From assembly GCA_030041545.1 (NCBI GenBank), contig JASHNQ010000050.1:22374-86373 (forward strand): a DNA stretch of 64,000 bases. The letters run 5' to 3'. The notes under the pieces are model-generated. The model saw nothing but the letters and a program-made list of their open reading frames with translations, made no database searches and was not told the origin of the DNA. Within the stretch, counting starts at the first letter, position 1. The number at the start of each line of letters is the position of its first letter. A program made the position numbers and the translations under genes. Positions 9,133 through 61,610 of this stretch are shown here, one piece after another. Source of the stretch: a candidate division FCPU426 bacterium (lineage in GTDB: Bacteria; Oederibacteriota; Muellerivitia; Muellerivitales; Muellerivitaceae).

Positions 9133-9222
9133 CACCCCTCACCCTACCCTCTCCCCCAAGGGGCGAGGGTTTTTGCGGGTATTTCCCCCTCTCCCTTGAG
9201 GGGAGAGGGAGGGGTGAGGGTG
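9133..9222. repeat. GGGGAGAGGG-core palindromic repeat, copy A (modules X-Y)
   Basis: cacccctcaccctaccctctcccccaaggggcgagggt ... ccccctctcccttgaggggagagggaggggtgagggtg. The same modules recur near 43.3, 46.2, 51.6 and 61.4 kb. Confidence 0.7.
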
Positions 9223-9843: not shown

Positions 9844-9940
9844 TGCGGCTTTCAATAGATCAATTCGGAGGTTTTTAAGCCAACGGCTCAAAAACCCACT
9901 TTAACTCAAAATTCAGAACTCAAAACTCATAACTGCCTTC

Positions 9941-28439: not shown

Positions 28440-29310
28440 GGGCACTGGCGCATATGCGTTAGAATCCGGTGGCTTTTCCAACCCTTTAGGATTGGGCCTC
28501 AGTCCGGCTTTCTTGGCTATGTTTCCAGCGCCCCCTCATCAGTACGTGACCTTTTCGATCATACGGCTTTCCGACAACCTTTCCTCCGTCGGCTTTGCGG
28601 GTTCTGCTTTCTCTTGGCCGCTCGGCATAGTTCTTGTTGAAGATTACGCGCTTTTGTCCTTCAGAGTTGTTAGCCGTTTCCGGCATTCTCCAGCGCCACC
28701 CTTCTTGAATGCACGTGGTTGAAGCAGGGGACCTTCCCTCGGGAGAGGTTTTGTTGTCCTCCCCCTCTAAGCGGTACTATTTCCCCCTCCGACTTCCTCC
28801 CGTCACGCCTCCCTTTCGGTCGCCCTTATAGGAGCCGCTCTTTTAACGGGTAGGATCTCCCAGGTTGATGCATGAGCCTTTTCAGCGTTCCGCTCCCCAT
28901 ACGCCGGAGGATTTGCCTCACCCAATCCTGTTTCAGGGTGAGATTGTTGCCTTCGCCGGTGGACACGCGGCTCGGCCTCCCCTGTAGCCTTTCGGCGGAC
29001 TCTTCACGACGCGGCAGGATTCACTTCATGTTGCGGACTGCGGAGTTGTTCCCTTCCTTTCGAAGGTTTATGACCTCGTTTCGGACAAAGCCTCTCGACT
29101 TTGCCACGGAGGCTGACTTCGGGGCCCTCAGGCGGTTACCCCGTCAGGACTTGGTCCATATCGAACCTCACCTGCTGGCTACTGCACCCTTGTTCCTGGC
29201 ACACTGTCCACGACGGGTCCCAATCGTGGACACTCAAAATCAGCTGTACCTTTTTACAACTTCCTCCGTCTCTTTTGAGGCTCATTCCCATCAATAGCTA
29301 TTTTCCAAAT
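28440..29310 (-). other. ORF-free, lower-GC region; candidate structured RNA or degenerate group II intron fragment (unresolved)
   Basis: ~0.9 kb with only short low-complexity ORFs; plus strand pyrimidine-rich, so the minus transcript would be purine-rich; reverse complement of ~28548..28582 reads AAGCCGUAUGAUCGAAAAGGUCACGUACUGAUG, partly matching the group II domain V consensus GAGCCGUAUGCGAUGAAAGUCGCACGUACGGUUC. Confidence 0.3.
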
Positions 29311-31570: not shown

Positions 31571-31672
31571 CCTCACCACGAAGTACACGAAGACCACGAA
31601 GTAAAATCAATGTTGTTCAATACATTTTCGACCTACTTTGTGTACTTTGTGCCCTTTGTGGTAAGAGTTTTA
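31571..31672. repeat. compound palindromic element P3 (CACrAAG tandem-unit arms)
   Basis: cctcaccacgaagtacacgaagaccacgaagt ... actttgtgtactttgtgccctttgtggtaagag, in the lpxK-waaA intergenic gap. Confidence 0.7.
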
Positions 31673-33643: not shown

Positions 33644-33660
33644 GAAATCGTTCCCAAAAA

Positions 33661-33772
33661 CGAATTATGAATTATGAATTTTGAATTTTGAATTGCGGTT
33701 GGTTTCGCTTCCAAATTCGAATCGAAATTCTTCTTACTATAATTCAAAATTGAGAATTCAAAATTCAAAATT
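33661..33772. repeat. AT-rich compound palindrome Q1 (GAATTWTGAATT tandem-unit arms)
   Basis: gaattatgaattatgaattttgaattttgaatt ... aattcaaaattgagaattcaaaattcaaaatt, between the DUF374 gene start and the lpxB end. Confidence 0.65.
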
Positions 33773-34922
33773 AGCCTTTCAACAGCTTCAGGATTTCCCG
33801 GGCGACATTTTCAGAGGCTTTGGGCGGGCGGGCAATGCTCTTTTTGATTTTTTGGAAGGCCTTGGTTTGGCGGTCCCGGAAAGCCTTTTGGTCCAAAAGC
33901 CGGTGGGTTTCCTCGACGAGGCGCTTGGCCGTGGCCTTTTCCTGGAGAAGCTCGGTGACCACCGTCTGGCCCGCCAAGAGGTTGACCAAAGAGACGTTTT
34001 TTACCCTCAAAAGCCCCTTCACCAGCCAACCCGTGACGGCCGCCACCTTGTAAACCACCACCATGGGCGTTTTTAAAAGAGCCGTTTCCAGGGTGCTAGT
34101 GCCGGATTTAACCCAAGCCACATCGCAGGCCTTGCGTAGGTCGTAGGCCGGCCCCTCCACGAAAAAAAAAGGGTCGTCGGGGGTCAAGCCGTGAAAATCG
34201 TCCTGCTCCAACCCATGGGATTTGGGCACGATAAAGGCCGCGTCCGGGCAGGCCTTGCGCAGCAGCCGGGAGGCCTTTAAAAATAGCGGCCAAAGCCTTT
34301 CGATCTCGTCCTTGCGGCTTCCGGGCATGGCGCAAACCACGGGAAAGCGGGAATAGGAAATGCCCTTTTCCTCCAAAACAGCCTTTCGGTGGATGGGCCC
34401 AAGGTCTATCTCCTCCACCAACGGGTTTCCCACGTAAACCGCTTGGATGCCATGCTTGCGGAAATAAGCCGTCTCAAAAGGGAAAATGACAAGGAGCTTC
34501 CGCAGGATTTTTTTCATCACCTTGACCCGGCCCTCGTTCCAGGCCCAGACCTTGGGCGCGATGTAATAGCAAACGGGCACCTTGAGCCGGTAGGCGGCTT
34601 GCGCCAGCCGCAGGTTGAAACCGGGGTAATCCACTAGGAAAAGGAGGTCGGGTTTTTCGGCCTTCAGCCAGTTTTCGCAATCCCTGAGGCGCCTCAAACT
34701 GGCCGGAAGGTGCCGGAGGACCTCCGCGAAACCCATCACGGCCTTGGAGGTGAGGTCTTCCCGCGCTTCCATGCCCGCTTTCGCCATGCGGGGACCGCCA
34801 AAGCCGAAAATCCTTAATTTTTTATTCTTTCCAAGGAGCGCCCGAATGACCCTGGACGCGTGAAGGTCGCCGGAGGCTTCGCCGGCGACCATCAGGATGG
34901 ATCGGGGTTGGGGAGAGCGCAT
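33771..34922 (-). CDS. lpxB: lipid-A-disaccharide synthase
   Basis: ILMVAGEASGDLHASRVIRAL N-terminal motif and LpxB length. Confidence 0.85.
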   Translation of the reverse strand: MRSPQPRSILMVAGEASGDLHASRVIRALLGKNKKLRIFGFGGPRMAKAGMEAREDLTSKAVMGFAEVLRHLPASLRRLRDCENWLKAEKPDLLFLVDYPGFNLRLAQAAYRLKVPVCYYIAPKVWAWNEGRVKVMKKILRKLLVIFPFETAYFRKHGIQAVYVGNPLVEEIDLGPIHRKAVLEEKGISYSRFPVVCAMPGSRKDEIERLWPLFLKASRLLRKACPDAAFIVPKSHGLEQDDFHGLTPDDPFFFVEGPAYDLRKACDVAWVKSGTSTLETALLKTPMVVVYKVAAVTGWLVKGLLRVKNVSLVNLLAGQTVVTELLQEKATAKRLVEETHRLLDQKAFRDRQTKAFQKIKKSIARPPKASENVAREILKLLKG

Positions 34923-36159: not shown

Positions 36160-36256
36160 CTCTTACCACAAAGTTCACAAAGGACACAAAGTAAAGACTC
36201 ATTCTTTGGAAAAATCATCGGTTTTACTTCGTGATCTTCGTGTACTTCGTGGTGAG
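36160..36256. repeat. compound palindromic element P4 (CACAAAG tandem-unit arms)
   Basis: ctcttaccacaaagttcacaaaggacacaaagt ... acttcgtgatcttcgtgtacttcgtggtgagaaa. Confidence 0.7.
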
Positions 36257-38288: not shown

Positions 38289-38867
38289 TCAACGACGGAT
38301 CAGGGAGGATTCCAAAAAATTCTTCAATAAGGCCTTTCCCGACTCGGTCAGGATGGATTCGGGGTGGAACTGGACCCCTTCCACCGGAAGCGTTTTGTGG
38401 CGCACCCCCATGATTTCCCCGTCCTCGCTGGTAGCGGTGACCTCCAGGCATTCCGGCAAGGTTTTTTTTTGGATGACCAGGGAATGGTACCGGGTCGCGC
38501 GGAAGGGATTGGGCAGGCCCTTGAACACGCCCTTTCCGTCATGGGTGATCTGGCTGGTCTTGCCGTGCATGAGCTTTTGGGCCCGAACGATGTCTCCCCC
38601 AAAGGCGTAACCGATGCTCTGGTGCCCCAAACAAACCCCCAGGATGGGGATTTTACCGGCTAGTTCCTTGATGGTTTCCACCGATATGCCGGCCTCTTTG
38701 GGCGAGCAAGGCCCCGGCGAGATGAGGATATGGGTCGGCTGGCGCTTTAAGATCTCCTCCACCGGGATCTCATCGTTGCGCGCGACTTGGATATCCGCGC
38801 CAAGTTCGCCCAGATATTGCACCAGGTTGTAGGTGAAGGAGTCGTAGTTATCGATCACGAGGATCAT
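38289..38867 (-). CDS. trpG: anthranilate synthase component II / glutamine amidotransferase
   Basis: [18 protein letters not shown]...GVCLGHQ class-I GATase motifs; overlaps trpE end by 4 nt. Confidence 0.8.
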
Positions 38868-40537
38868 TTGCGTCCTCCTTTCGCGGGAGAAACCCTTTTT
38901 CTTTTTTTGTTTTTCCCAAGCTTTGGCTTTCTTAGTGCCTTGGTGCCTTGGTGGTTGGAGGTTATCTTTTCCGCCTGTCCCACCGCCATCAACACCGCTC
39001 GGGCCTTATTGCAGGATTCCATATACTCGGCTTCCGGAACCGAGTCCGCTACCAGACCGGCCCCGGCCTGAACGTAGGCTATTTGCGTTGTTACCGAACC
39101 CGTCTTACGGGTTCGCCCCGAGCGAGCGGAGCGAGTCGAATGGGCCTTTTTGAGGACTACGGAGCGGATGGTGATGGCCGAGTCCATGTTTCCGTCGAAC
39201 CCGAAAGCCACTACCGCCCCACCGTAAATCCCCCGGCGGGAGGGCTCCAGTTCCTCGATGATCTCCATGGCGCGGATCTTAGGCGCCCCCGAAAGGGTGC
39301 CCGCTGGGAAGCAGGATTGGAACGCGTCATAGGCGGTTTTGTTTTTTTGCAGCCGCCCCGCCACGTCGGAGACGATGTGCATGACGTGGGAATAACGCTC
39401 GACGCGCTTGAAATGCCCCACCTTGACCGTGCCGAAATCGCAGACTCGTCCCAGGTCGTTGCGGGCCAGGTCCACCAGCATCACGTGTTCGGCCAGTTCC
39501 TTCTCGTCGGCTAGGAGGTTTTCCTCCAGTTGTTTATCTTCCTCCGGTGTCTTTCCCCGGGGCCTGCTCCCGGCGATAGGCCGGGTCTCCACCACGCCGT
39601 TCTGCACCTTGATCATCATCTCGGGCGAGGAGCCCACCAATTCCAAACCTCCCATCCTCAGGATGAACATGTAGGGGGATGGATTCAATCTCCTTAAAAC
39701 CCGGTAAATGGAAACCGCATCGGCTGAAACATCCCTTTCGAATCGCTGGGAGCCCACCACCTGGATGATGTCCCCCGCCTTGATGTATTCCTTGGATATA
39801 TCCACCATTCGCATGAAATTCTCGGGAGTCATGTTGGAGGAGAACCCAAAAAGGTCGTTAGGGCCCATCTTGACCGCGGAAGTCACGGGGATTTCCCTCA
39901 CTCCTTTTAATGGTTTTTCCATTTTTTGGGCCAAGGCGGCCAATCGCCGTATGGCGCCCAGGTAAGCCTTGAGCCGGTTGGTCCCAGGGCCGACTTCCAC
40001 ATTGACCACCAAGCGGAGCGTCCTTTTCAGGTGGTCGAAGAGGGCCAGTTGGTCGGTCACCATCAGGTAAAGGTCCGGGAGGTCCAGGATATCTGGTTTT
40101 TGGGACGGAAGTTTCTCGAAATACCGGACGGCGTCATAGCCGACGAAACCGACCAGCCCTCCCAGGAACCCTTGTGTCCCCGCCAGGGGGGCTTGCCGGA
40201 TGCCCGAGACCTCTTTTTGAATGACTTGCAACGGGTTGGCCGCCTTCTGGGACAACTTTTTCTTGCCCCGGCGGTGGGTAAGCATGCCGTTCTTGGCCTC
40301 ATAGACCGCGGTGGGCTCGAACCCCACAATGGAGAACCGGGCGACCTGCTCGTTCTTTTCCACGCTTTCCAGCAGGAACCCGTTCTCGCCTTGAGCCAGT
40401 TTCAAATAGACCGAAAGCGGGGTTTCCAAATCCGATTGGAAAACCATGGACACCGGAACGCGATTGTAAGATTCGGCGAGTTGGACGAAAGAATCGATGG
40501 AAGAAGGAACAATGTTTGAGGAAATTGCGGTTTTCAT
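38864..40537 (-). CDS. trpE: anthranilate synthase component I with unusual Lys-rich C-terminal extension
   Basis: Chorismate-binding domain conserved to ...[12 protein letters not shown]; an extra ~40 aa basic tail (..[22 protein letters not shown]) is encoded by palindrome-element-like DNA. Confidence 0.8.
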
Positions 40538-43282: not shown

Positions 43283-43366
43283 CACCCCTCATCCCCCCCT
43301 CTCCCCCAAGGGGCGAGGGTGACGAGTACCCCTTCTCCCTTGAGGGGAGAAGGATGGGATGAGGGT
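43283..43366. repeat. GGGGAGAGGG-core palindromic repeat, copy B (modules X-Y)
   Basis: cacccctcatccccccctctcccccaaggggcgagggt gacgagta ccccttctcccttgaggggagaaggatgggatgagggtg. Confidence 0.7.
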
Positions 43367-43426: not shown

Positions 43427-43699
43427 TTACTTCTCATCTTCGCTTATTTCGATTTCAAACTTATTGGCTTCGGGCGACATCCGCAGGTGGACGTGATAGG
43501 GATGGCCCTGGGCCCATCTCACCCGCAGTTCGGGCATTTCCTTGACGATGCCGTTGATGAAGAAATCAAGTTGTTTCTGGGCGAAAAACTTCACCTTATC
43601 GGGGGTCTTCTCAGCGGGCTTCAATGGCCCGAAATACCGGTTCACGTTGTCTTGGACGAGTTTTTGAAGCTGGTGGAGGGCGGGTTGGGGTAGGCTCAT
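43427..43699 (-). CDS. small conserved hypothetical protein (paralogue of 42865..43146)
   Basis: FAQKQLDFFINGIVKEMPEL core. Confidence 0.5.
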   Translation of the reverse strand: MSLPQPALHQLQKLVQDNVNRYFGPLKPAEKTPDKVKFFAQKQLDFFINGIVKEMPELRVRWAQGHPYHVHLRMSPEANKFEIEISEDEK

Positions 43700-43736
43700 G
43701 AAGGCTCCTTAATAACCCTAGGGGTGCGGCTACAGG

Positions 43737-44507
43737 TTAAATCCTAACCGGTATCCCCTTTTTCTGTAAATATTCCTTGGCCTGTTTCACCGAATATTCC
43801 CGGTAATGGAAGATGGAAGCGGCCAAAACGGCGTCCGCCCTTCCCTGGAGGATTCCCTCAGCCAGGTGCTCCAAATTCCCTACGCCTCCCGAGGCGATGA
43901 CCGGCACCGAAACCGCCTCGGAGATGGCCCGGGTCAGCTCCAAATCATAGCCGTTTTTGGTGCCGTCCCGGTCCATGCTGGTCAAAAGGATTTCCCCCGC
44001 TCCCAAGGCAGCCCCCTGTTGGGTCCATTCCAGCGCGTCCTTACCCGTCGCGGTGCGGCCTCCATGGGTGTAAACCTCCCACCCCTTCGAGGGGTCGTTG
44101 GCGTTCCTGCGCTTGGCATCGATCGCTAAAACAATACATTGGGCCCCAAATTTTTCCGCGCCTTCTTTGAGTACCTGGGGGTTTTCAACAGCGCGGGTAT
44201 TCAGGGAAACCTTGTCGGCGCCGGATTTCAAGAGGGTTCGGATGTCATCGGTGGTGCGCACTCCCCCACCCACGGTCAAGGGCATAAAGACCGCTTCCGC
44301 CGTTCGGGTGACCACGTCCAGGAGGATATTCCGTTTCTCGTACGAGGCGGTGATATCGAGGAAAACCAGCTCGTCGGCGCCCTCGGCGTCGTATTGCTTG
44401 GCGATCTCCACCGGGTCGCCCGCGTCGCGGAGGTTCTCAAATTTGACGCCCTTGACCACCCGGCCTTCTTTAACATCCAAACAAGGAATAATCCTTTTCG
44501 CCAACAT
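43737..44507 (-). CDS. hisF: imidazole glycerol phosphate synthase cyclase subunit
   Basis: Canonical HisF sequence; ATG preceded by GGAGG. Confidence 0.9.
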
Positions 44508-44555
44508 CAAAAAACCTCCGGCAATTTAGCCACAGATACGTGGGGTACATATGAA

Positions 44556-45314
44556 TTATTTCTTTTTCTTTTTGGTCCGTGGCGCAAGGGGTTCCTTGGC
44601 GATCTTGATGGCCTGCTTGAGGTCGATCTTGCCCGTGTAAAGGGCCTTGCCGATGATGACGGAAGTGATCCCGTATTTTTCCAGCCGCTTGGCGTGCTCG
44701 ATGTCTTTGTAGCTGGACATGCCGCCGGAGGCGATGACCGGCACTTTAACCGCCACGGCCAGTTCCTTGGTACTTTTGAAATTGGGCCCTTCCAGCATTC
44801 CATCCCTTTGTATGTCGGTAAAGATGATCTGGCCCACGCCAAGATCCACCATTTCCTTGGCCAGGTCGATGGCGTTCACCTTGGTGACCTGCTTCCAACC
44901 CTTGATGGCCACCATTCCTTTCTTGGCGTCGATCCCCGCGATGATGGACTTTCCGTATTCCTTGACCGCGTCCCTGACGAAGTCCTTGTTCTGCACCGCC
45001 GAGGTACCCAGGATGACGAAATCCACCCCGATTGAAAGGACTTTCTCGATGGTTTTCAGGTCCCGGATGCCTCCGCCCACCTGCACCTTCAGGTCGGTGG
45101 CCTTGATGATGTCCTTCACGTAATCCAGGTTCGCTAGCTTGCCGGAAAAAGCGCCATCCAGGTCGATGACATGCAGGCGCTTGGCGCCCTTGAGTTTCCA
45201 CAGTTTGGCGACGGAAACAGGCTCTTGGGAATAAACGGTTTCGTCCCTCAGGTCCCCTTGGACCAGCCGCACGCAGCGGCCCTTGCGGATATCTATAGCC
45301 GGGATTACATACAT
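44556..45314 (-). CDS. hisA: 1-(5-phosphoribosyl)-5-[(5-phosphoribosylamino)methylideneamino]imidazole-4-carboxamide isomerase
   Basis: Canonical HisA (VIPAIDIRKGRCVRL...); ATG preceded by AAGAGG. Confidence 0.9.
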   Translation of the reverse strand: MYVIPAIDIRKGRCVRLVQGDLRDETVYSQEPVSVAKLWKLKGAKRLHVIDLDGAFSGKLANLDYVKDIIKATDLKVQVGGGIRDLKTIEKVLSIGVDFVILGTSAVQNKDFVRDAVKEYGKSIIAGIDAKKGMVAIKGWKQVTKVNAIDLAKEMVDLGVGQIIFTDIQRDGMLEGPNFKSTKELAVAVKVPVIASGGMSSYKDIEHAKRLEKYGITSVIIGKALYTGKIDLKQAIKIAKEPLAPRTKKKKK

Positions 45315-45332
45315 CAAAAACCTCTTTTACCC

Positions 45333-45418
45333 CGAAGACACGAAGTACGCAAAGAACGACTAAAAGTTTTATTTTTAACCACTTTTTGCCTTTTTCGCGT
45401 GCTTCGCGCTTTCGCGGT
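45333..45418. repeat. compound palindromic element P8 (CGCGAAG/CACGAAG tandem-unit arms)
   Basis: cgaagacacgaagtacgcaaagaacg ... ttcgcgtgcttcgcgctttcgcgg, in the hisA-hisH gap. Confidence 0.6.
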
Positions 45419-46044
45419 TAATTTATTTCGACTAAGGTTTTGAAGTTTTCGTAAATCTTGAGCCCGACCGTTTGGCTCTTTTCGGGGTGGAACTGGGTGC
45501 CGAACACGTTCTTTTCCCAAACCATGCAGGTGAAATCCACTCCATAGGAGCATTGGGCGGCGACAATGGATGGGTTTTCCGGAACCACGTAATAAGAGTG
45601 AACGAAATAAAGGAAATCGCCGTCTTTAACCCCTTTTAGCAGGGGATTCCCGTTTTTCTTGACCTGGATTTGGTTCCAACCCATATGAGGTACTTTTTGG
45701 CCCTGGGCAAACTTTACGACCCTGCCTGGAAAGACGCCCAGGCCCTTCGATAAGCCGAATTCCTCGCTTTCGGCGAAAAGCATCTGCAGCCCCACGCAAA
45801 CCCCCAAGAAAGGCTTTCCCGAAGCGATATAAGACTTGATAGCCTTAGCCAGGTCTGACCGGTTCATGGCGTCCATGGAATCCTTGAAGGCCCCCACGCC
45901 GGGCAAAACCACGCCGTCGGATTTTTCCACGTCCCTCCAGTCGGACGTCACATGGGTCTTGGCCCCAACCTTTTCCAGGGCCTTGGCCACGCTGTGCAGG
46001 TTGCCCACGCCGTAATCCACGACAGTTATCATTAAAAACCCCAT
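45418..46044 (-). CDS. hisH: imidazole glycerol phosphate synthase glutamine amidotransferase subunit
   Basis: Canonical HisH (ITVVDYGVGNLHSVAKAL...GVCVGLQ). Confidence 0.9.
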   Translation of the reverse strand: MGFLMITVVDYGVGNLHSVAKALEKVGAKTHVTSDWRDVEKSDGVVLPGVGAFKDSMDAMNRSDLAKAIKSYIASGKPFLGVCVGLQMLFAESEEFGLSKGLGVFPGRVVKFAQGQKVPHMGWNQIQVKKNGNPLLKGVKDGDFLYFVHSYYVVPENPSIVAAQCSYGVDFTCMVWEKNVFGTQFHPEKSQTVGLKIYENFKTLVEIN

Positions 46045-46290
46045 CTCTTACCACAAAGTAGACGAAGTACACAAAGTAAAGAATGAAAAACCTTTATGTT
46101 TTACTTCGTGGACTTAGAGACTCTAACAAAACCCTGTTTTTAAGGAATATCTCCCTCTCCCTTGAGGGGAGAGGGATGGGGTGAGGGTGGCAACTGCAGG
46201 GTTTTCCACACCTCTCACCCTACCCTCTCCCGCAAGGGGCGAGGGTCTGCGGCGGTTTTGTTAGAGTCTCTTAGTGTACTTTGTGGTGAG
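46045..46290. repeat. compound palindromic element P5 interrupted by a nested MITE-like insertion
   Basis: Left arm tcttaccacaaagtagacgaagtacacaaagt...ttttacttcgtggactta, then the insertion, then right arm ttagtgtactttgtggtgagag. Confidence 0.65.
46117..46270. mobile_element. MITE-like element copy C (GAGACTCTAACAAAACC terminal inverted repeats, GGGGAGAGGG core, modules Y-X) with TTA target duplication
   Basis: gagactctaacaaaaccctgttttt...core...ggttttgttagagtctc flanked by tta/tta; near-identical to copy D at 61389..61542. Confidence 0.65.
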
Positions 46291-46302
46291 AGTTATTAAT
46301 TG

Positions 46303-46896
46303 TTACAAGTTGCCTTTGGTGGAAGGGATTCCCTTCACCTTGGCGTCGTGCGCCACCGCCATCTTGAATGCCCGGGCGAAACTCTTGAAGGCCGCTTCCA
46401 CAATATGATGGCTGTTGCGGCCGTGTATCTTCTCCAGGTGCAGGTTGAACTTGCCGTTGTCCGCCACCGCCCGGAAGAAATCCTCCACCAGTTCGGCGTC
46501 GAAGTGGCCGATGCGTTTCTTGACCGCCAGGTCCAGGGCGAAGTTGATGTAGTTGCGGCCACCCAGGTCCACCACGGCCCGCACCAGGGCCTCGTCCAGG
46601 GGCACGTAAAAGAAACCGAACCGGGAAATGCCGGCCTTGTCCCCCAAGGCCTTTTCCAAGGCCATCCCCAGGCAGATGCCGATGTCCTCCACCGTGTGGT
46701 GGTCATCGATATGGGTGTCGCCCTTGGCCGCGACTTTCAGGTCGAACCCGCTGTGTTTGCTGAAGGCCTCCAGCATGTGGTTGAGGAAGGGCACGGGCGA
46801 CTTGACCTGGTGGGCGCCGGTCCCGTCCAAATCCAGCACAAGGTCTATCTGGGTCTCTTTTGTTTTTCGGCTGATTTTTCCGATGCGGTGTGACAA
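46303..46896 (-). CDS. hisB: imidazoleglycerol-phosphate dehydratase
   Basis: Canonical HisB motifs (HIDDHHTVED...). Confidence 0.9.
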   Translation of the reverse strand: MSHRIGKISRKTKETQIDLVLDLDGTGAHQVKSPVPFLNHMLEAFSKHSGFDLKVAAKGDTHIDDHHTVEDIGICLGMALEKALGDKAGISRFGFFYVPLDEALVRAVVDLGGRNYINFALDLAVKKRIGHFDAELVEDFFRAVADNGKFNLHLEKIHGRNSHHIVEAAFKSFARAFKMAVAHDAKVKGIPSTKGNL

Positions 46897-46907
46897 AGGA
46901 AACTTCC

Positions 46908-46983
46908 TTAAGTTAGGGGTTAGGAATGAGGAGTTAGGAGTTTACGGATTTCACTCCTCACTTCTAACTCCCAACTCATAACT
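46908..46983. repeat. palindromic element R1 (GAGTTAGGA-type arms) overlapping the hisC 3' end
   Basis: gttaggggttaggaatgaggagttaggagt ttacggatttc actcctcacttctaactcccaactcataac. Confidence 0.6.
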
Positions 46984-48032
46984 TCCTTTAATGCTTTTAA
47001 AAACCGGTGGTTTTGGGCCGGTGTTCCCACTGTAATCCTCAAGGAATCCTTGAGCCTCGGATGGGGGAAGTATCTTACCAAAACGCGCTTTTTTTTGAGA
47101 TTTTTGTAAAGTCCTTCCGATGAAGGGCTTCCACGGCGGGTGGCAAGGATGAAGTTGGACTGGCTGTCGGGGACGGTGAAGCCGAGATTGCGCAGTTCCT
47201 TGGTGAGGCTGTTGCGGTCGAGCCGGATCCTGCGGACGTTCTTTCGCATGTCCGCCAATCCGGCGGGCGAAAGGGCCGCAAGCCCTACGGCTTGGGTTAT
47301 CCGGTTCACATTGTAGGAATCCTTCACTTTCATCAGTTCAGCGATGACCCAAGGATGGCCAAAAACAAAACCCAACCGGGCTCCGGCCAATGAGAAGGAC
47401 TTGGATAGGGTGCGAAGAACCAGCACATTCGGACAGGCCTTGGCGATGTCCAGGCAGTGGTCCTTGGCGAAATCCACGTAGGCCTCGTCGATCAGCACGA
47501 GCCCTTTGGCTTTCCGGCAAAAAGCCTTTATGTCGGTTTGGGGAAAGCAATTTCCAACCGGCGGATTCGGGTAACCCCAAAGGGTCAGCCGGGCGGCGGG
47601 GGAAAACTTTTTAAAGTCCAGGCCCCAGTCGGGCTTTAACTTCACCTCTTTGATTTTGGCTTCACGGAGTCGGGCCAAAACCGGGTAAAGGCTGTAAGTG
47701 ATGTCCGGATATTGGACGAGGTCGTCCTTCCCCACTGAGGCGTGAAAAAGGATGGAAAGGATTTCGTCCGACCCATTCCCCACCAGGATTCCCTCCACCG
47801 GCCAGCGGTAAACCTGGGACAGGCGCTTCCGGAGGGTGTCGGCGGCCGGTTCGGGATAAAGGCGCAGGCGCTGGTCAGCCTGGTCGCGGACCGCCTTGAG
47901 GACTTCAGGGGAGGGTGGATATGGATTTTCGTTGGTATTGAGTTTGACAGTGGTCGTGTCTTTGGGTTGTTCACCCGGAACATAACCCTTCATTTTTAAA
48001 ACAGCCGGCCTGAACCAGTTTTCTAAGTTCAT
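46920..48032 (-). CDS. hisC: histidinol-phosphate aminotransferase
   Basis: Canonical HisC PLP-fold; the last ~20 codons (..SWELEVRSEIRKLLTPHS) are encoded by palindromic element R1. Confidence 0.85.
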   Translation of the reverse strand: MNLENWFRPAVLKMKGYVPGEQPKDTTTVKLNTNENPYPPSPEVLKAVRDQADQRLRLYPEPAADTLRKRLSQVYRWPVEGILVGNGSDEILSILFHASVGKDDLVQYPDITYSLYPVLARLREAKIKEVKLKPDWGLDFKKFSPAARLTLWGYPNPPVGNCFPQTDIKAFCRKAKGLVLIDEAYVDFAKDHCLDIAKACPNVLVLRTLSKSFSLAGARLGFVFGHPWVIAELMKVKDSYNVNRITQAVGLAALSPAGLADMRKNVRRIRLDRNSLTKELRNLGFTVPDSQSNFILATRRGSPSSEGLYKNLKKKRVLVRYFPHPRLKDSLRITVGTPAQNHRFLKALKEVMSWELEVRSEIRKLLTPHS

Positions 48033-48099
48033 AAATCTCTTTCGTCGCGAAGGCCTTCAAAAAAACGACTTAAAAGGGCAATGTTTTACGCGTAGCGGA

Positions 48100-48127
48100 A
48101 AACCATCCACAATTTAAAATTCAAAAT
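48100..48127. repeat. single-arm AT-rich GAATTTTGAATT-family unit array (Q2)
   Basis: ccacaatttaaaattcaaaattcacgattcaaaatt in the hisC-hisD gap; partner arm not evident. Confidence 0.4.
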
Positions 48128-49489
48128 TCACGATTCAAAATTATCTTTCTTACCCATCCTAAACAACACGCTTTGGGCGTGGGCGCCCAAACCCTCTTCG
48201 TTGGCAAAATCCACCGTGGCCTTGCCCAGCGCCTTCACGCCGGGTTTCTTGATCTCCAGCAGGTTGGTGCGTTTGAGGAAGTCGAACACCGAAAGCCCCG
48301 ATGAATAGCGGGCCGTGCCGCCCGTGGGCAGGACATGGTTGGTGCCCGCCGTGTAGTCGCCGAAGGCCTCGGCGCTGTGGGGGCCGATGAAGAGCGCGCC
48401 CGCGTGCTTGATGTCCGGCAGCCAGGCACGGGCGTCTTTGGCCAATATTTCGAGATGTTCGGGCGCGAAACGGTTGGCGAACTCGATGGCTTGCCTCCGG
48501 TTCTTCACCACGAGGATGGCCCCACGGCTCTTGATGGAATCGGCCGCGATTTGCTCCCGTTCCAGGAGTTCCAACTGCAATTCCACTTCCTTGGCCACTT
48601 CCTTGGCGTAAGGGGCGGAAGTGGTCGCCAAAAGGGGCATGGCCATTTCGTCGTGTTCCGCTTGGGCCAGAAGGTCCGCCGCCGCCCAGGAGGCCGGCAC
48701 TGTGCCGTCGGCCAGGATCAGCACCTCGCTGGGCCCCGGAAAACCGTCGATTCCAACTTGTCCGAAAACCTTGCGCTTGGCCAAGGCCACGAAGAGGTTG
48801 CCTGGTCCCGTAATCTTGTCCACGGCCGGGACTGACTTGGTACCATAAGCCAGGGCCGCGACGGCCTGGGCTCCACCGATCTTGAGAATGGTATCGGCTC
48901 CCGCGAAATAGGCAGCGGCCAGCACAATGGGGTTCACCTTGCCATCTTTCTTGACCGGCGTGACCACCACCACTTCCTTAACCCCCGCCACCTTGGCCGG
49001 AATGACATTCATGATGACCGAAGAAGGATAGGCGGCCAGGCCGCCCGGCACATAAAGTCCAACCCGGTCCAGGGGCGTCCAGCGCTGGCCTAGGGCCACC
49101 TGCGGGCCGTTGTGGAACCACCGGGATGGTTTTTCCTTGGCATGGAAAAAGCGGACGTTGCGGATGGCCGTGCGAATGGCGAATTCCACGGGAACTTCAA
49201 GATGATTGAGTGCCTGCTGGATTTCAGCTTGGGTGACGCGGATGTTTTTGGCGTTGGCGGCGAAGCCGTCCAGTTTACGGGTATAGCTGAAGAGGGCCGT
49301 GTCGCCTTTCTCCTTCACGTCTTCCACGATGCGCTCCACGGCCTGTTCAGGTGTCAGCTCCCGCCCGAAGACCTTCTTGGTCAAGGACGCCCGGCTGCCC
49401 GCGCCCTTTAAGGCGAAGATGGGTTCACGCTTAATAAGCTTTTCGACCAAAAAGCGGTCTTTATTCTTCGAATAGTTCAAGATTCGCAT
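48128..49489 (-). CDS. hisD: histidinol dehydrogenase
   Basis: Canonical HisD; ATG preceded by GAAGAGG. Confidence 0.9.
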   Translation of the reverse strand: MRILNYSKNKDRFLVEKLIKREPIFALKGAGSRASLTKKVFGRELTPEQAVERIVEDVKEKGDTALFSYTRKLDGFAANAKNIRVTQAEIQQALNHLEVPVEFAIRTAIRNVRFFHAKEKPSRWFHNGPQVALGQRWTPLDRVGLYVPGGLAAYPSSVIMNVIPAKVAGVKEVVVVTPVKKDGKVNPIVLAAAYFAGADTILKIGGAQAVAALAYGTKSVPAVDKITGPGNLFVALAKRKVFGQVGIDGFPGPSEVLILADGTVPASWAAADLLAQAEHDEMAMPLLATTSAPYAKEVAKEVELQLELLEREQIAADSIKSRGAILVVKNRRQAIEFANRFAPEHLEILAKDARAWLPDIKHAGALFIGPHSAEAFGDYTAGTNHVLPTGGTARYSSGLSVFDFLKRTNLLEIKKPGVKALGKATVDFANEEGLGAHAQSVLFRMGKKDNFES

Positions 49490-49500
49490 CACAACCTCTT

Positions 49501-49606
49501 CGCCAATTTTGAATTTTTAGTTTTAAATTTTAAATATTGGTGGTTTTCGATCAAAGATCGAAAACTTCCACAATTTAAAATTCAAAATTCATAATTCAAA
49601 ATTTCA
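49501..49606. repeat. AT-rich compound palindrome Q3 with perfect inner hairpin
   Basis: aattttgaatttttagttttaaattttaaatatt ... ggttttcgatcaaagatcgaaaac ... aatttaaaattcaaaattcataattcaaaattt, in the hisD-murA gap. Confidence 0.65.
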
Positions 49607-50863
49607 GTTTATCCTTTGAATATCCGCGCCCAAAACCAAAAGCTTCTGTTCGATTTTCTCATATCCCCGGTCCAAGTGGTAAATGCGCTGCACCAGGGTT
49701 TCCCCTTCCGCCACCAGTCCCGCCAGGATCAGGGCCGCGCTGGCCCGAAGGTCCGAGGCCATGACCGGCGCGCCGGTCAATTGTTTCACGCCTTTCACCA
49801 CCGCGTGGCTGCGGTCGATATTGATGTCCGCGCCCATGCGGTTCAGTTCGAAGACATGCATGAAGCGGTTCTCCCAGATGGTTTCGGTGATGACGCTGAT
49901 ACCCGGCACCACGGCCAAAAGCGCCATGATCTGGGCCTGCATGTCCGTGGGGAAACCGGGATAAGGAAGGATCCAGACATCCGCCGGTTTGTAGTCTCCC
50001 CCGCCCTTTACCCTTAGGCCCTCGGCGGTCCCTTCGACCGTTACTCCGATCTGCTTCAACTTGTCGGTAACCGCCGTTAAGTGGGTTGAATCGGCTTTCT
50101 TGAGCAGGACGTCGCCCCGGGTGATGGCGGCGGCCGCCATGAAGGTTCCCGCTTCCACCCGGTCGGGGATCATCGAATAATCGGTGCCCTTCAGGGTCTT
50201 TTTTCCGTCGATGACCAGGCGGGAGGTTCCCCCGCCCTCGATATGGGCTCCCATGGCCTTAAGGAAATTGACCAAATCCCCCACTTCGGGTTCGGTGGCG
50301 GCGGATTCGATGACCGTGGTTCCCTCGGCGGCCGTGGCGGCCATAAGCACGTTCACCGTAGCGCCCACGCTGGGGCCGTGCGGGCCGGCCAGGTAAATGG
50401 TGGTCCCCTTGAGTTTGGAAGCCTTGGCGTGGATGTAGCCGTGCTCGATGGTCACCTTGGCGCCCAACTGCTCCACGCCCTTCAGGTGAAGGTCAATGGG
50501 CCTTGCGCCGATGGCACAGCCCCCGGGCAGGGAAACCTTCGCTTCCCCCAGGCGGGCCAGGCAGGCGCCCAATGAGTAAATGGAGGCCCGCATGGTCTTG
50601 ACCAGCTCGTAAGGCGCCTCGAACTTATTGAACCCTTTGGGGTCGATATGCAGCCGGTGGTCTTCCAGGACGGCGGAAGCGCCCAGCTTGCGCAGCACCT
50701 CACCCATGGTCTTGATGTCGTTCAAGTAGGGCACGTTATGGATGACCGAGGGAGACTCGCCCAAAAGGGCGGCGGTCATGACGGGCAGGGTGGCGTTCTT
50801 GGAGCCGCTGATCTCAACCGTGCCCCGGAGGGTCTTACCGCCCTTGACGGAAATCTTTTGCAT
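49604..50863 (-). CDS. murA: UDP-N-acetylglucosamine 1-carboxyvinyltransferase
   Basis: Canonical MurA from MQKISVKGGKTLRGTVEISGSKNATLP onward. Confidence 0.9.
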   Translation of the reverse strand: MQKISVKGGKTLRGTVEISGSKNATLPVMTAALLGESPSVIHNVPYLNDIKTMGEVLRKLGASAVLEDHRLHIDPKGFNKFEAPYELVKTMRASIYSLGACLARLGEAKVSLPGGCAIGARPIDLHLKGVEQLGAKVTIEHGYIHAKASKLKGTTIYLAGPHGPSVGATVNVLMAATAAEGTTVIESAATEPEVGDLVNFLKAMGAHIEGGGTSRLVIDGKKTLKGTDYSMIPDRVEAGTFMAAAAITRGDVLLKKADSTHLTAVTDKLKQIGVTVEGTAEGLRVKGGGDYKPADVWILPYPGFPTDMQAQIMALLAVVPGISVITETIWENRFMHVFELNRMGADINIDRSHAVVKGVKQLTGAPVMASDLRASAALILAGLVAEGETLVQRIYHLDRGYEKIEQKLLVLGADIQRIN

Positions 50864-50885
50864 GAAAACCCCCAAAATCAAATGG

Positions 50886-51010
50886 AACCACAAAGGCACT
50901 AAGGGCACAAAGTAAATCCAAAACGATTTTGAGTTAAAACTAAAAAAGCCGTCCTAAGACGGCCTTTCAATGTTTAGAAAATTTTCGACTTTCTTGGTGC
51001 CCTTGGTGCC
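50886..51010. repeat. compound palindromic element P6 with perfect inner hairpin
   Basis: ggaaccacaaaggcactaagggcacaaagt ... gccgtcctaagacggc ... cttggtgcccttggtgcctttgtggttc, between the rnpB 3' end and the murA start. Confidence 0.65.
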
Positions 51011-51040
51011 TTTGTGGTTCAATGCCTTTGAAAATAAAAA

Positions 51041-51507
51041 AAGAAGCAGGTCATAAGCCGAATTCTGTTAAGTGTGATCATTTCTCTCGCGGGGTCCGTT
51101 GCCGGCCCCGTCGATGCGATCTTACCCGAAGGCCTCCCCTTCCCGTGAAGGAAAGGGATGGGACGGACCGCCCCAAAGCCTCCCTATTTGATCTTGCTCC
51201 GGATGGGGTTTGCCATGCCGCCCCACTTGCGTGGGGGCGCGGTGGGCTCTTACCCCACCTTTTCACCCTTACCCTTCGACTCGGCCTTACGGCCTCGCTC
51301 AGGGCGGGCCCCTTTAGGGAACCTGCTCTGGTCTCGCCAACGGGCGGTTTGTTTTCTGTGGCACTTTCCTTCAACCCAGTCCTCATCACCAAAGGTTAGA
51401 GGAAGGCTGGGCCGACCGGGCGTTACCCGGCATCCTGTCCTGCGGAGTTCGGACTTTCCTCACCCCCGGGCCCAAAAGGCCGGGAGCGCGATCACGGACC
51501 TGCTTCC
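51041..51507 (-). ncRNA. rnpB: RNase P RNA (bacterial type A)
   Basis: Minus-strand transcript: P1 GGAAGCAGGUCC pairs with GGACCUGCUUC; P4 5' strand GAGGAAAGUCCGAACUCC; GGGUAACGCC; P4 3' strand ACAGAAUUCGGCUUAUGACC; U-tract after the 3' end. Only spurious ORFs overlap. Confidence 0.85.
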
Positions 51508-52662: not shown

Positions 52663-52688
52663 GGCCTTAAACCCCTAAACAAAATCCC

Positions 52689-52795
52689 TCTTACCACAAA
52701 GTACACAACGGACACGAAGTTTAAACCTTTACTTTTTCCCAAATGTTCTACTTCTTTAAACTTTGTGTACTTCGTGAACTTGGTGGTGAGAGTTT
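52689..52795. repeat. compound palindromic element P7 (CACAAAG/CACGAAG arms)
   Basis: ctcttaccacaaagtacacaacggacacgaagttt ... aaactttgtgtacttcgtgaacttggtggtgagag. Confidence 0.7.
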
Positions 52796-61324: not shown

Positions 61325-61610
61325 CCATTGAGTATCGATACCCGTCGCGTCCAATAGTTGTGAGTTTCGAGTGTTGAGTTTTGAGTCAGAGACTCTAACA
61401 AAACCCTGTTTTTAAGAAATATCCCCCTCTCCCTTGAGGGGAGAGGGACGGGGTGAGGGTGGCAACTGCAGGGTTTTCCACACCCCTCACCCTACCCTCT
61501 CCCGCAAGGGGCGAGGGTCTTGGGAGGTTTTGTTAGAGTCTCTTAATGAAATTTTCGGATTCACGGATGAATCCGAAAACACCCACAACTCAAAACTTTT
61601 TTCTCCTCAG
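61325..61610. repeat. palindromic element S1 (GAGTTTTGAGT-type arms, inner hairpin ttttcggattcacggatgaatccgaaaa) interrupted by MITE copy D
   Basis: Left arm gttgtgagtttcgagtgttgagttttgagtca | insertion | right arm ...acccacaactcaaaactttt. Confidence 0.55.
61389..61542. mobile_element. MITE-like element copy D (GAGACTCTAACAAAACC terminal inverted repeats, GGGGAGAGGG core)
   Basis: Near-identical to copy C (46117..46270); flanks tca / tta. Confidence 0.65.

Follow-up and report, generated by a model that had tools for sequence, protein, structure and literature searches.

Here we describe a palindromic repeat that covers the 3′ end of hisC, the gene for histidinol-phosphate aminotransferase, in a 64-kb stretch of DNA (hereafter the window, to which all coordinates refer) from the metagenome-assembled genome of an uncultured soil bacterium of the candidate phylum FCPU426. 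The gene lies on the minus strand at 46920-48032 and encodes 370 amino acids (aa); its last codons (about 350-370) together with its stop codon (46922-46920) are all located inside an imperfect palindrome of 75 nucleotides (nt; 46910-46984), whose 5′ arm and loop are crossed by the hisC frame before it ends at the first in-frame TAA of the 3′ arm. It is likely, in our view, that a repeat element has run over the former stop of hisC, that the resulting tail is a tolerated passenger and that the mRNA hairpin probably keeps the downstream gene, hisB, coupled to hisC.

In this proposal, a palindromic repeat, about 75 nt long or, if the outer stem is counted, about 95 nt, would lie across the former hisC stop codon, which the insertion, an event that we infer, would have displaced. 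With that stop out of the way, the ribosome would translate the 5′ arm and the loop and terminate in the stop-rich 3′ arm, thus adding residues 353-370 (18 aa) to an otherwise intact HisC. This would constitute a clean and well-controlled example of an essential enzyme whose end is rewritten by repeat DNA and which survives the change; 14 relatives show the ancestral state, and the added peptide would be whatever the repeat encodes in the frame left open.

The two arms of the palindrome (46910-46941 and 46953-46984, 32 nt each) are 78% complementary, are separated by 11 nt (46942-46952) and contain four tandem heptamers each (GTTAGGA / TCCTAAC), the general form being 5′-(GAGTTAG)n-loop-(CTAACTC)n-3′. 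On the mRNA, which is read from the minus strand, the 5′ arm (46953-46984) runs AAGTTAT GAGTTGG GAGTTAG AAGTGAG GAGT and the 3′ arm (46910-46941), rich in stop codons (CTAA), runs ACTCCTA ACTCCTC ATTCCTA ACCCCTA ACTT; the loop region reads GGAGTGAAATCCGTAAACTCC. Tandem Repeats Finder reported a period of 7 with 4.6 copies at 46911-46942, and both arms were also found by a lag-7 scan. Their tandem repetition also lets the arms pair with a shift of one heptamer (46911-46934 with 46953-46976, 83% complementary), and this alternative register, in which the loop becomes 18 nt (46935-46952), is the one adopted by the minimum-free-energy fold.

In the mRNA sense, the segment 46890-47000 is predicted to fold at -39 kcal/mol, compared with -21.3 ± 3.2 kcal/mol for shuffled sequences (z -5.55; none of 200 shuffles was as stable). 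Thus, the stable hairpin that a preliminary description of this DNA had placed in the path of the ribosome is borne out as a prediction. With its outer stem the full hairpin (46894-46994, minus strand) reaches -42.7 kcal/mol in a 141-nt context; that stem is formed between the hisC codons A-L-K-E-V (46994-46980) and the stretch 46902-46893, which comprises the spacer and the hisB start codon, and within the 3′ arm the present hisC stop (TAA, 46920-46922) is fully base-paired (unpaired probability 0.00). A screen of the folds of 200 nt around every stop codon was uninformative, being dominated by generic multibranch structures.

The same description had claimed that about 20 codons of hisC are read through the palindrome and that 23 nt separate hisC from hisB; the codons and the stop are indeed found inside the element, and the gap is exactly 23 nt. 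Across the 5′ arm the hisC frame alone stays open: counted from L348 it remains open for 23 codons, whereas in the remaining two frames a stop is met after 0 and 12 codons, which is why the unusual length of the tail would seem an accident of frame. A second TAA in frame with hisC (46908-46910, minus strand) abuts the hisB Shine-Dalgarno (SD) sequence, at the position where the relatives have their stop (TAA followed by GGAG). Programmed frameshifting at the hairpin was considered and rejected, there being neither a slippery site nor an extended alternative frame.

The core of the enzyme is complete. HisC presents the full-length domain of a class II aminotransferase (Pfam Aminotran_1_2 at residues 28-348, E 4e-57) in the context of a his operon, together with the pyridoxal phosphate (PLP)-lysine motif SKSFSLAG, which is invariant in the orthologue alignment. 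As this motif and all the other invariant columns are intact in the window protein, the gene is not a pseudogene. Its C-terminus reads ..KEVMSWELEVRSEIRKLLTPHS (in a longer stretch, ..ALKEVMSWELEVRSEIRKLLTPHS), and the element-encoded tail, residues 353-370 (SWELEVRSEIRKLLTPHS; 46923-46976, minus strand), is a feature of this protein only among those compared. Indeed, when the C-termini were aligned, as the preliminary description had proposed, all 27 orthologues (46-79% identity) finished at ..LKxLL, opposite window residues 347-352 (ALKEVM), and none shared the tail. A search of 5.8 billion database proteins returned, besides thousands of orthologues, the window's own record (P0001, NCBI, 100% identical); among the 120 best matches the tail is shared by none, and query coverage nowhere exceeds 96%. 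Furthermore, in 14 alignments to solved HisC structures (PDB) the last aligned residue of the query falls at 342-357, and at 348-353 in 11 of them.

In the AlphaFold2 model the last helix (338-366) runs on into the tail while the confidence score (pLDDT) drops from above 90 to 69 and then to 61. The tail is therefore most likely a protruding extension outside the fold, a solvent-exposed continuation of the last helix. The strand opposite it encodes a mirror-image peptide (..ELGVYGFHSSLLTPNS). Three points suggest that the tail would most likely be a tolerated passenger: C-terminal extensions are common in orthologues (a few of those aligned carry unrelated ones of 3-20 residues), its position is outside the fold, and the mirror peptide is encoded opposite it. 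An earlier claim that the element had been recruited as C-terminal coding sequence holds in that the element encodes the tail; recruited is not the same as functional, and no result supports a role beyond that of a passenger. The contrary idea, that the tail is an ancestral functional extension of HisC whose DNA is palindromic by chance, can draw on the helical continuation in the model, but it is effectively refuted by the absence of the tail from every orthologue aligned and every solved structure, by the compact junction of the sister lineage described below, and by the mirror-image peptide, which is expected of repeat DNA and not of a selected peptide.

At the other end of the protein, the public annotation (P0001, 357 aa) places the HisC start at M14 (region 47994-48032). 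As the 13 residues upstream of M14 (MNLxNWFRPAVLK) are conserved in HisC orthologues, the ATG at 48032 is judged from the alignment to be the likelier start.

The hisC-hisB junction in related genomes

The his operon of the window is read from the minus strand in the order murA (49604-50908), hisD (48128-49492), hisC (46920-48032), hisB (46303-46896, imidazoleglycerol-phosphate dehydratase; Pfam IGPD, E 7e-62), then hisH, hisA and hisF. This synteny is common to 21 related FCPU426 loci, 20 of which include the hisC-hisB junction. In 14 of these 20 the junction is compact, with the hisC stop, the SD and the hisB ATG within 12-15 nt and no element between them. In a neighbour-joining tree of HisC and HisB together, the window is sister to the locus L002, and the next clade is formed by L001, L003 and L082; all of these have the compact junction. 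Aligned to the compact relatives, the window carries about 65 extra nt at this point, and the shorter hisC that the preliminary description had suggested looking for in relatives is thus found in L002 and 13 others. Because the sister lineage, the neighbouring clade and most relatives have the compact junction, the element would be a derived feature of the window's lineage.

The boundary with the sister lineage is sharp. Over the 100 alignment columns up to the junction the two sequences agree at 74 of 77 positions; identity then breaks after ..CGGTTTTTAA, at TTTTTAA|, and resumes at 94-98% about 25 codons into hisB. In hisB itself, the first 25 codons or so have a DNA identity of 56-72% to any relative, and over the 75 codons that follow identity to L002 is 96%. 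Over a longer distance (43900-48170), nucleotide identity to L002 is a mosaic in which tracts of 95-99% alternate with tracts of 67-80%, which indicates either recent recombination between FCPU426 lineages or the mixing of strains in the assemblies. Import of the tract 46997-46822 from the lineage of L007, one of the relatives with an element of its own, was considered and rejected: L007 is no closer to the window there than other relatives are (68%).

Heptamer arrays over the hisC stop occur in four lineages, namely the window, L007, L011 and L012, and the last three are separated from the window in the tree by clades with compact junctions. At L007 the junction reads AATTAGG AATTCGT AATGCGG AATTAGG .. 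AATTCCT AACTCCT AACTCCT AATTTCT, giving the tail IRNS*, and an element of this type is also present in two independent assemblies, L165 (NCBI) and L166 (Logan; the same sequence as L007). The junctions of L011 and L012 are made of AATTTTA-type units, with the tails NTKF* and KFEF*, respectively. In all four lineages the array sets in at one and the same codon, following ..LK(E/A/I). The restriction of the GAGTTAG type to this junction, taken up below, could reflect a site preference, an old polymorphism spread by recombination, or growth of the palindrome in place. In the 20-kb contexts of three further relatives almost no heptamer arrays were found.

These independent assemblies also bear on the question of an artefact, either a fold-back chimera or a true hisC stop lying upstream. 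The source is a metagenome-assembled genome, and the mosaic identity to the sister lineage could in principle mean strain mixing; nevertheless, artefactual fold-backs are perfect and these arms are only 78% complementary, the open reading frame (ORF) is continuous, the NCBI record P0001 ends in the same C-terminus, and an analogous junction element is found in both L165 and L166. We regard an artefact as very improbable.

A family of heptamer arrays in FCPU426

The element is not alone of its kind in this genome, for which we defined, in the course of this analysis, a family of heptamer-array palindromes with the unit GARTTNN, which fill intergenic gaps here and in relatives. Further period-7 arrays are located in the window at 9902-9935, 33653-33702 / 33739-33775, 48102-48143, 49504-49539 / 49567-49607 and 61356-61386, with the architecture and polarity of the hisC element at 49505-49603 and 33656-33779 among others; full copies form long hairpins, and the family is also present in the relatives L001, L002, L010, L011, L012 and L089. 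Every member has a single polarity, 5′-(GARTTNN)n ... (NNAAYTC)n-3′. Most members share a central core, present at 49535-49575 and 48070-48110 and in L001, L010 and L011, AATTGTGGA.GTTTYCG...CGRAAAC.TCCACAATT, and since this core occupies different gaps in different relatives (hisH-hisA in L001, hisB-hisH in L010 and L011) the family appears to be dispersed.

The hisC element has at least four heptamers per arm, inverted arms, the polarity and the unit consensus of the family, and its position over an upstream stop. Its own units (GAGTTGG, GAGTTAG, AAGTGAG) are related to those of the other copies (GAATTTT, GAGTTTT, GAGTTCT), and the outer units of its arm match the array at 9924-9939 at 15 of 16 positions. 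As unit length, copy number, polarity and a related unit agree while the core is missing, we consider it, on the architecture of its sequence, a divergent rather than canonical member. The preliminary description had called it a GAGTTAGGA-type palindrome: the palindrome is present, but that exact word occurs once in the window, and the other copies of the family to which the element belongs are of the GAATTTT or GAGTTTT type.

Family arrays typically abut or overlap the stop of the upstream co-directional gene, as they do at murA, hisD, lpxB and a kdsB-like gene; the overlap at hisC, of about 62 nt, is the largest. At lpxB and the kdsB-like gene the stop is located within a heptamer array. In the murA-hisD gap, 49505-49603 forms a canonical full palindrome (-35.9 kcal/mol, z -6.8), and the murA stop (TGA, 49606-49604) is the first triplet of its first heptamer. 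At the 3′ end of hisD and in the hisD-hisC gap (48060-48143) there is a half element, AATTTTG AATCGTG AATTTTG AATTTTA with the central hairpin, within which hisD comes to its end, stop codon included, over its final 4-5 codons (..DNFES*).

Heptamer arrays of other units are located near hisC at eight further loci (L018, L019, L024, L031, L040, L058, L059 and L153) from Planctomycetota, Thermodesulfobacteriota, Binatia and other phyla. Their units include GATTTAC, GAATTGC, GATAACC, TAACTGA, and TGGTCAT with an inverted AAATGAC partner. On this comparison of sequences, the occurrence of heptamer arrays near hisC does not seem confined to FCPU426.

Origin of the element and translation of hisB

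The structural context suggests a consequence for the expression of the downstream gene. The hisB start (46894-46896, minus strand) is TTG in the window and ATG in every relative examined, and it is predicted to be paired in the outer stem (unpaired probability 0.03-0.09); the hisB SD, AAGGAAG (46903-46909, minus strand), lies 6 nt ahead of the TTG and is partly open in an internal loop (unpaired probabilities 0.13-0.97). In L001, L003, L082, L008 and L084, the last hisC codons and the stop, (G)GCUCCUUUAA, form a conserved mini-hairpin with AGGAGC(C), the SD of hisB, which suggests translational coupling. Ribosome release close upstream of a weak start is a standard arrangement for such coupling. 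In the window, the mRNA hairpin would pair with the weak TTG, and a ribosome translating hisC would melt the entire 5′ arm and terminate or be released 23 nt ahead of that start; the translation of hisB would then probably stay coupled to that of hisC, as through the SD-pairing mini-hairpin of the relatives. From the predicted fold, coupling of this kind is plausible, and it yields a testable idea on hairpin-mediated translational coupling in the his operon.

A stronger version, compatible with either origin of the element, holds that the hairpin is a selected regulatory device, kept either to enforce or tune hisC-hisB coupling or for mRNA stabilisation or processing, in the manner of the repetitive extragenic palindromic (REP) elements in Escherichia coli operons. 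The sequestered and weak start, set against the ATG of all relatives, would fit this idea, as would the sequestration of the hisB SD by the relatives' last hisC codons and the presence of arrays over the hisC stop in four lineages. Moreover, a 140-nt hisD-hisC stretch with its half element is 98% identical to that of L002, compared with 84% for the HisC proteins. This last identity is nonetheless accounted for by the mosaic of recently exchanged tracts, coding DNA included; 14 of the 20 relatives have no element at all at the junction, and the hisC element has neither an intrinsic-terminator signature nor an Rfam family. A selected device is, on balance, a possibility that we hold to be rather unlikely.

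Several observations weigh against the proposal that a dispersed repeat overran the stop and now couples the two genes. The closest relatives found have HisC identities of 84% (genome scan) and 80% (metagenome scan), too distant for a base-exact comparison of empty and filled sites or for a ratio of nonsynonymous to synonymous substitutions (dN/dS) in the tail. The conserved core of GAATTTT-type copies (AATTGTGGAAGTTTTCG..CGAAAACCACC) is absent from the hisC element, and exact search, blastn-short and heptamer clustering (at most 1 mismatch) gave no further GAGTTAGGA-type copies in the 64 kb. The FCPU426 sequence covered, about 330 kb, has the GAGTTAG type only at the hisC-hisB junction (in the window and in L007/L165/L166), a confinement that a dispersed element inserting at random would not readily explain; the recurrence of this type at this junction is the main point that our favoured reading leaves unexplained. 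As for the coupling, the hisB SD is only partly sequestered, and the prediction is a thermodynamic one only.

Some of these same points lend themselves to an origin in situ, in which the palindrome grew at the junction through heptamer slippage and arm-to-arm copying of CTCCTAA / TTAGGAG until the stop was engulfed. The starting point would have been an ancestral small hairpin, (G)CTCCTTTAA..TAGGAG(C), in which the last hisC codons paired with the hisB SD. Indeed, the words native to the junction of L001, L003, L082 and L002, namely CTCCTTTAA and TAGGAG, are similar to CTCCTAA and TTAGGAG; the GAGTTAG type, besides being confined to this junction, sits there at the same codon position, after ..ALK(E/A); the family core is missing; and heptamers are described as classically prone to slippage (Mrazek 2007, summarised in PMC4679880). 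The polarity, however, is reversed, since the native hairpin has a C-rich and then a G-rich arm and the element, like all family members, a G-rich and then a C-rich one. Furthermore, the near-complete match of the outer units to another array of the window points to the family, and no intermediate stages are seen in sister lineages. Growth in place therefore strikes us as unlikely, and the overrun of the stop by a family element remains the reading that we favour.

The flanks of the palindrome carry a 9-nt direct repeat, AAGGAAGTT, noticed on reading the sequence (left copy 46980-46988, right copy 46901-46909), which shares sequence with the hisB SD and with the palindrome's first 5 nt. A match of this length in 20-nt flanks has a chance probability of about 5e-4, as a rough estimate, and no comparable flanking repeat was seen around the other members of the heptamer family examined. 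It may be a target-site duplication, a duplication of the SD or a chance match.

A broader idea, improbable but worth stating, is that the heptamer palindromes of FCPU426 are self-renewing "junction modules" that home to stop/SD junctions and set the coupling between neighbouring genes. Such modules may supply stops in all frames and swap the native SD-sequestering hairpin for a larger one that mimics SD and anti-SD (GGAG with CUCC), and the idea would perhaps also cover the similar arrays at the Planctomycetota, Binatia and Thermodesulfobacteriota loci. If it were true, the recurrence of the GAGTTAG type at the same codon in two distant lineages would reflect targeting or selection and not chance.

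Known repeat classes and other features of the window

Among published systems, the closest in architecture are the GGGAATC heptamer repeats of Xanthomonas, of which 70-75 convergent (inverted) pairs exist per genome (Rehm et al. 2015, PMC4692102). They are also intergenic and comprise about four tandem heptamers, and inverted arrays, often near one another, can form a stem-loop or a cruciform. The unit in the window is, by contrast, the A/T-rich GARTTNN (GAGTTAG) rather than a G-rich one, has no G-quadruplex potential and belongs to another phylum; unlike the hisC element, the Xanthomonas repeats were not reported to read into coding sequence (PMC4692102).

The TAACTGA repeats reported in marine Beggiatoaceae, cyanobacteria and Bacteroidetes (MacGregor 2015, PMC4679880) are similar in another respect: they are heptamer arrays in short co-directional gaps, carry stops in all three frames and overlap upstream stop codons, and the 3′ arm unit of the window (TAACTCC / TAACTCA) is one or two bases off TAACTGA. 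They differ in being direct repeats (with one indirect repeat reported) found mostly just upstream of starts, whereas the arrays of the window are paired as palindromes.

Palindromic repeat DNA turned coding in a housekeeping enzyme is represented by the Rickettsia palindromic elements (RPE; Ogata et al. 2000), which, according to a review (PMC10969869), lie within the coding sequence of housekeeping enzymes that are not destroyed by them. As described there, RPE are of about 150 bp, internal and in frame, and the ORF continues past them; the hisC ORF ends inside the 3′ arm, which makes the event a C-terminal replacement or extension. The same review cites intragenic enterobacterial repetitive intergenic consensus (ERIC) elements and other MITEs (miniature transposable elements with inverted repeats) as small repeats with open frames that fuse to genomic ORFs (Delihas 2007, cited in PMC10969869), a likeness that the hisC element shares. 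In contrast to these, the hisC element is present in one copy in the window, and it has no known parent insertion sequence and no terminal inverted repeats distinct from its own body.

REP elements and the bacterial interspersed mosaic elements (BIME) of enterobacteria and pseudomonads are likewise short imperfect palindromes between co-transcribed genes that form hairpins in the mRNA. REPs are single palindromes of 20-40 nt that carry the tetranucleotide GTAG or CGTC as a tag at one end, and RAYT transposases are associated with them (PMC3333891, PMC3733652), while the hisC element is longer (75 nt) and built of tandem heptamers, with GTAG, CTAC, CGTC and GACG all absent from 46908-46986. Altogether, the element is best filed in the known class of heptamer-array and palindromic intergenic repeats that sometimes overrun gene ends; its novelty lies in the phylum and in the heptamer unit, the kind of event being familiar, and it opens no new kind of biology. 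Even so, with it a family of heptamer-array palindromes not described before is recorded from a candidate phylum without cultured members. By way of background to the comparison with REPs, these have established roles in mRNA stability and differential operon expression in E. coli, and the RAYTs (REP-associated tyrosine transposases) are thought to mobilise them.

Other known signals were also considered. The hisC element was not among the terminator-like sites of 43600-51100 when Rho-independent terminators, which have a G+C-rich stem and then a U tract, were looked for; its stem is followed by AAGGAAGUUUCC. Rfam returned no family at the gathering threshold or at a permissive E-value, the only matches being sub-threshold ones to miRNA-precursor hairpins (21.8 bits, against a threshold of 96). 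A protein-binding array of the TRAP or CsrA type (GAG/UAG or GGA motifs) was rejected on reading the sequence rather than by computation, for the motifs do not have the right spacing, are hidden within a long stem and are lacking from the GAATTTT-type copies, which are the commoner ones.

The preliminary description had seen in trpE another case like hisC. At the trpE 3′ end (38864-38960) the protein, of 557 aa compared with 520-547 aa in relatives, has a tail that overlaps the trpG start and does contain one repeat arm, of a CACCAAGG-type array; but the repeat is of a different type and gives no significant hairpin (z -1.26), so that trpE is no true parallel to hisC. In practical terms, the last 5-30 residues of many proteins in repeat-rich uncultured lineages (here HisC, HisD and TrpE) may be repeat-derived, and such residues would be unsuited to homology or structure inference.

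A second class of tandem-unit hairpins in the window is made of 8-9-nt units (CACAAAGTA, CACCAAGG, CACAGAGG and CACGGATGA, among others). These are located at 31577-31660, 36167-36251, 46045-46292 (outer arms), 50882-51023 and 52688-52792, and also in the hisB-hisH and hisA-hisF gaps of relatives. Their architecture is kept in the orthologous gap while the unit sequence differs between genomes, which suggests rapid turnover with conserved structure.

The window also contains a MITE-like element of about 165 bp in two copies (46112-46275 and 61380-61551; 93% mean column identity over the aligned stretches), with terminal inverted repeats AGAGACTCTAACAAAACC / GGTTTTGTTAGAGTCTCT and the core CCCTCTCCCTTGAGGGGAGAGGG; related cores lie at 9136-9220 and 43286-43365. 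Each copy is nested in the loop of another hairpin, of the nonamer type in the hisB-hisH gap and of the heptamer type in the kdsB-pyrG gap. Finally, a bacterial class A RNase P RNA is encoded at 51039-51506 (minus strand, 258 bits), and domains D1-D4 of a group II intron match at 29026-29162 (minus strand, 64 bits).

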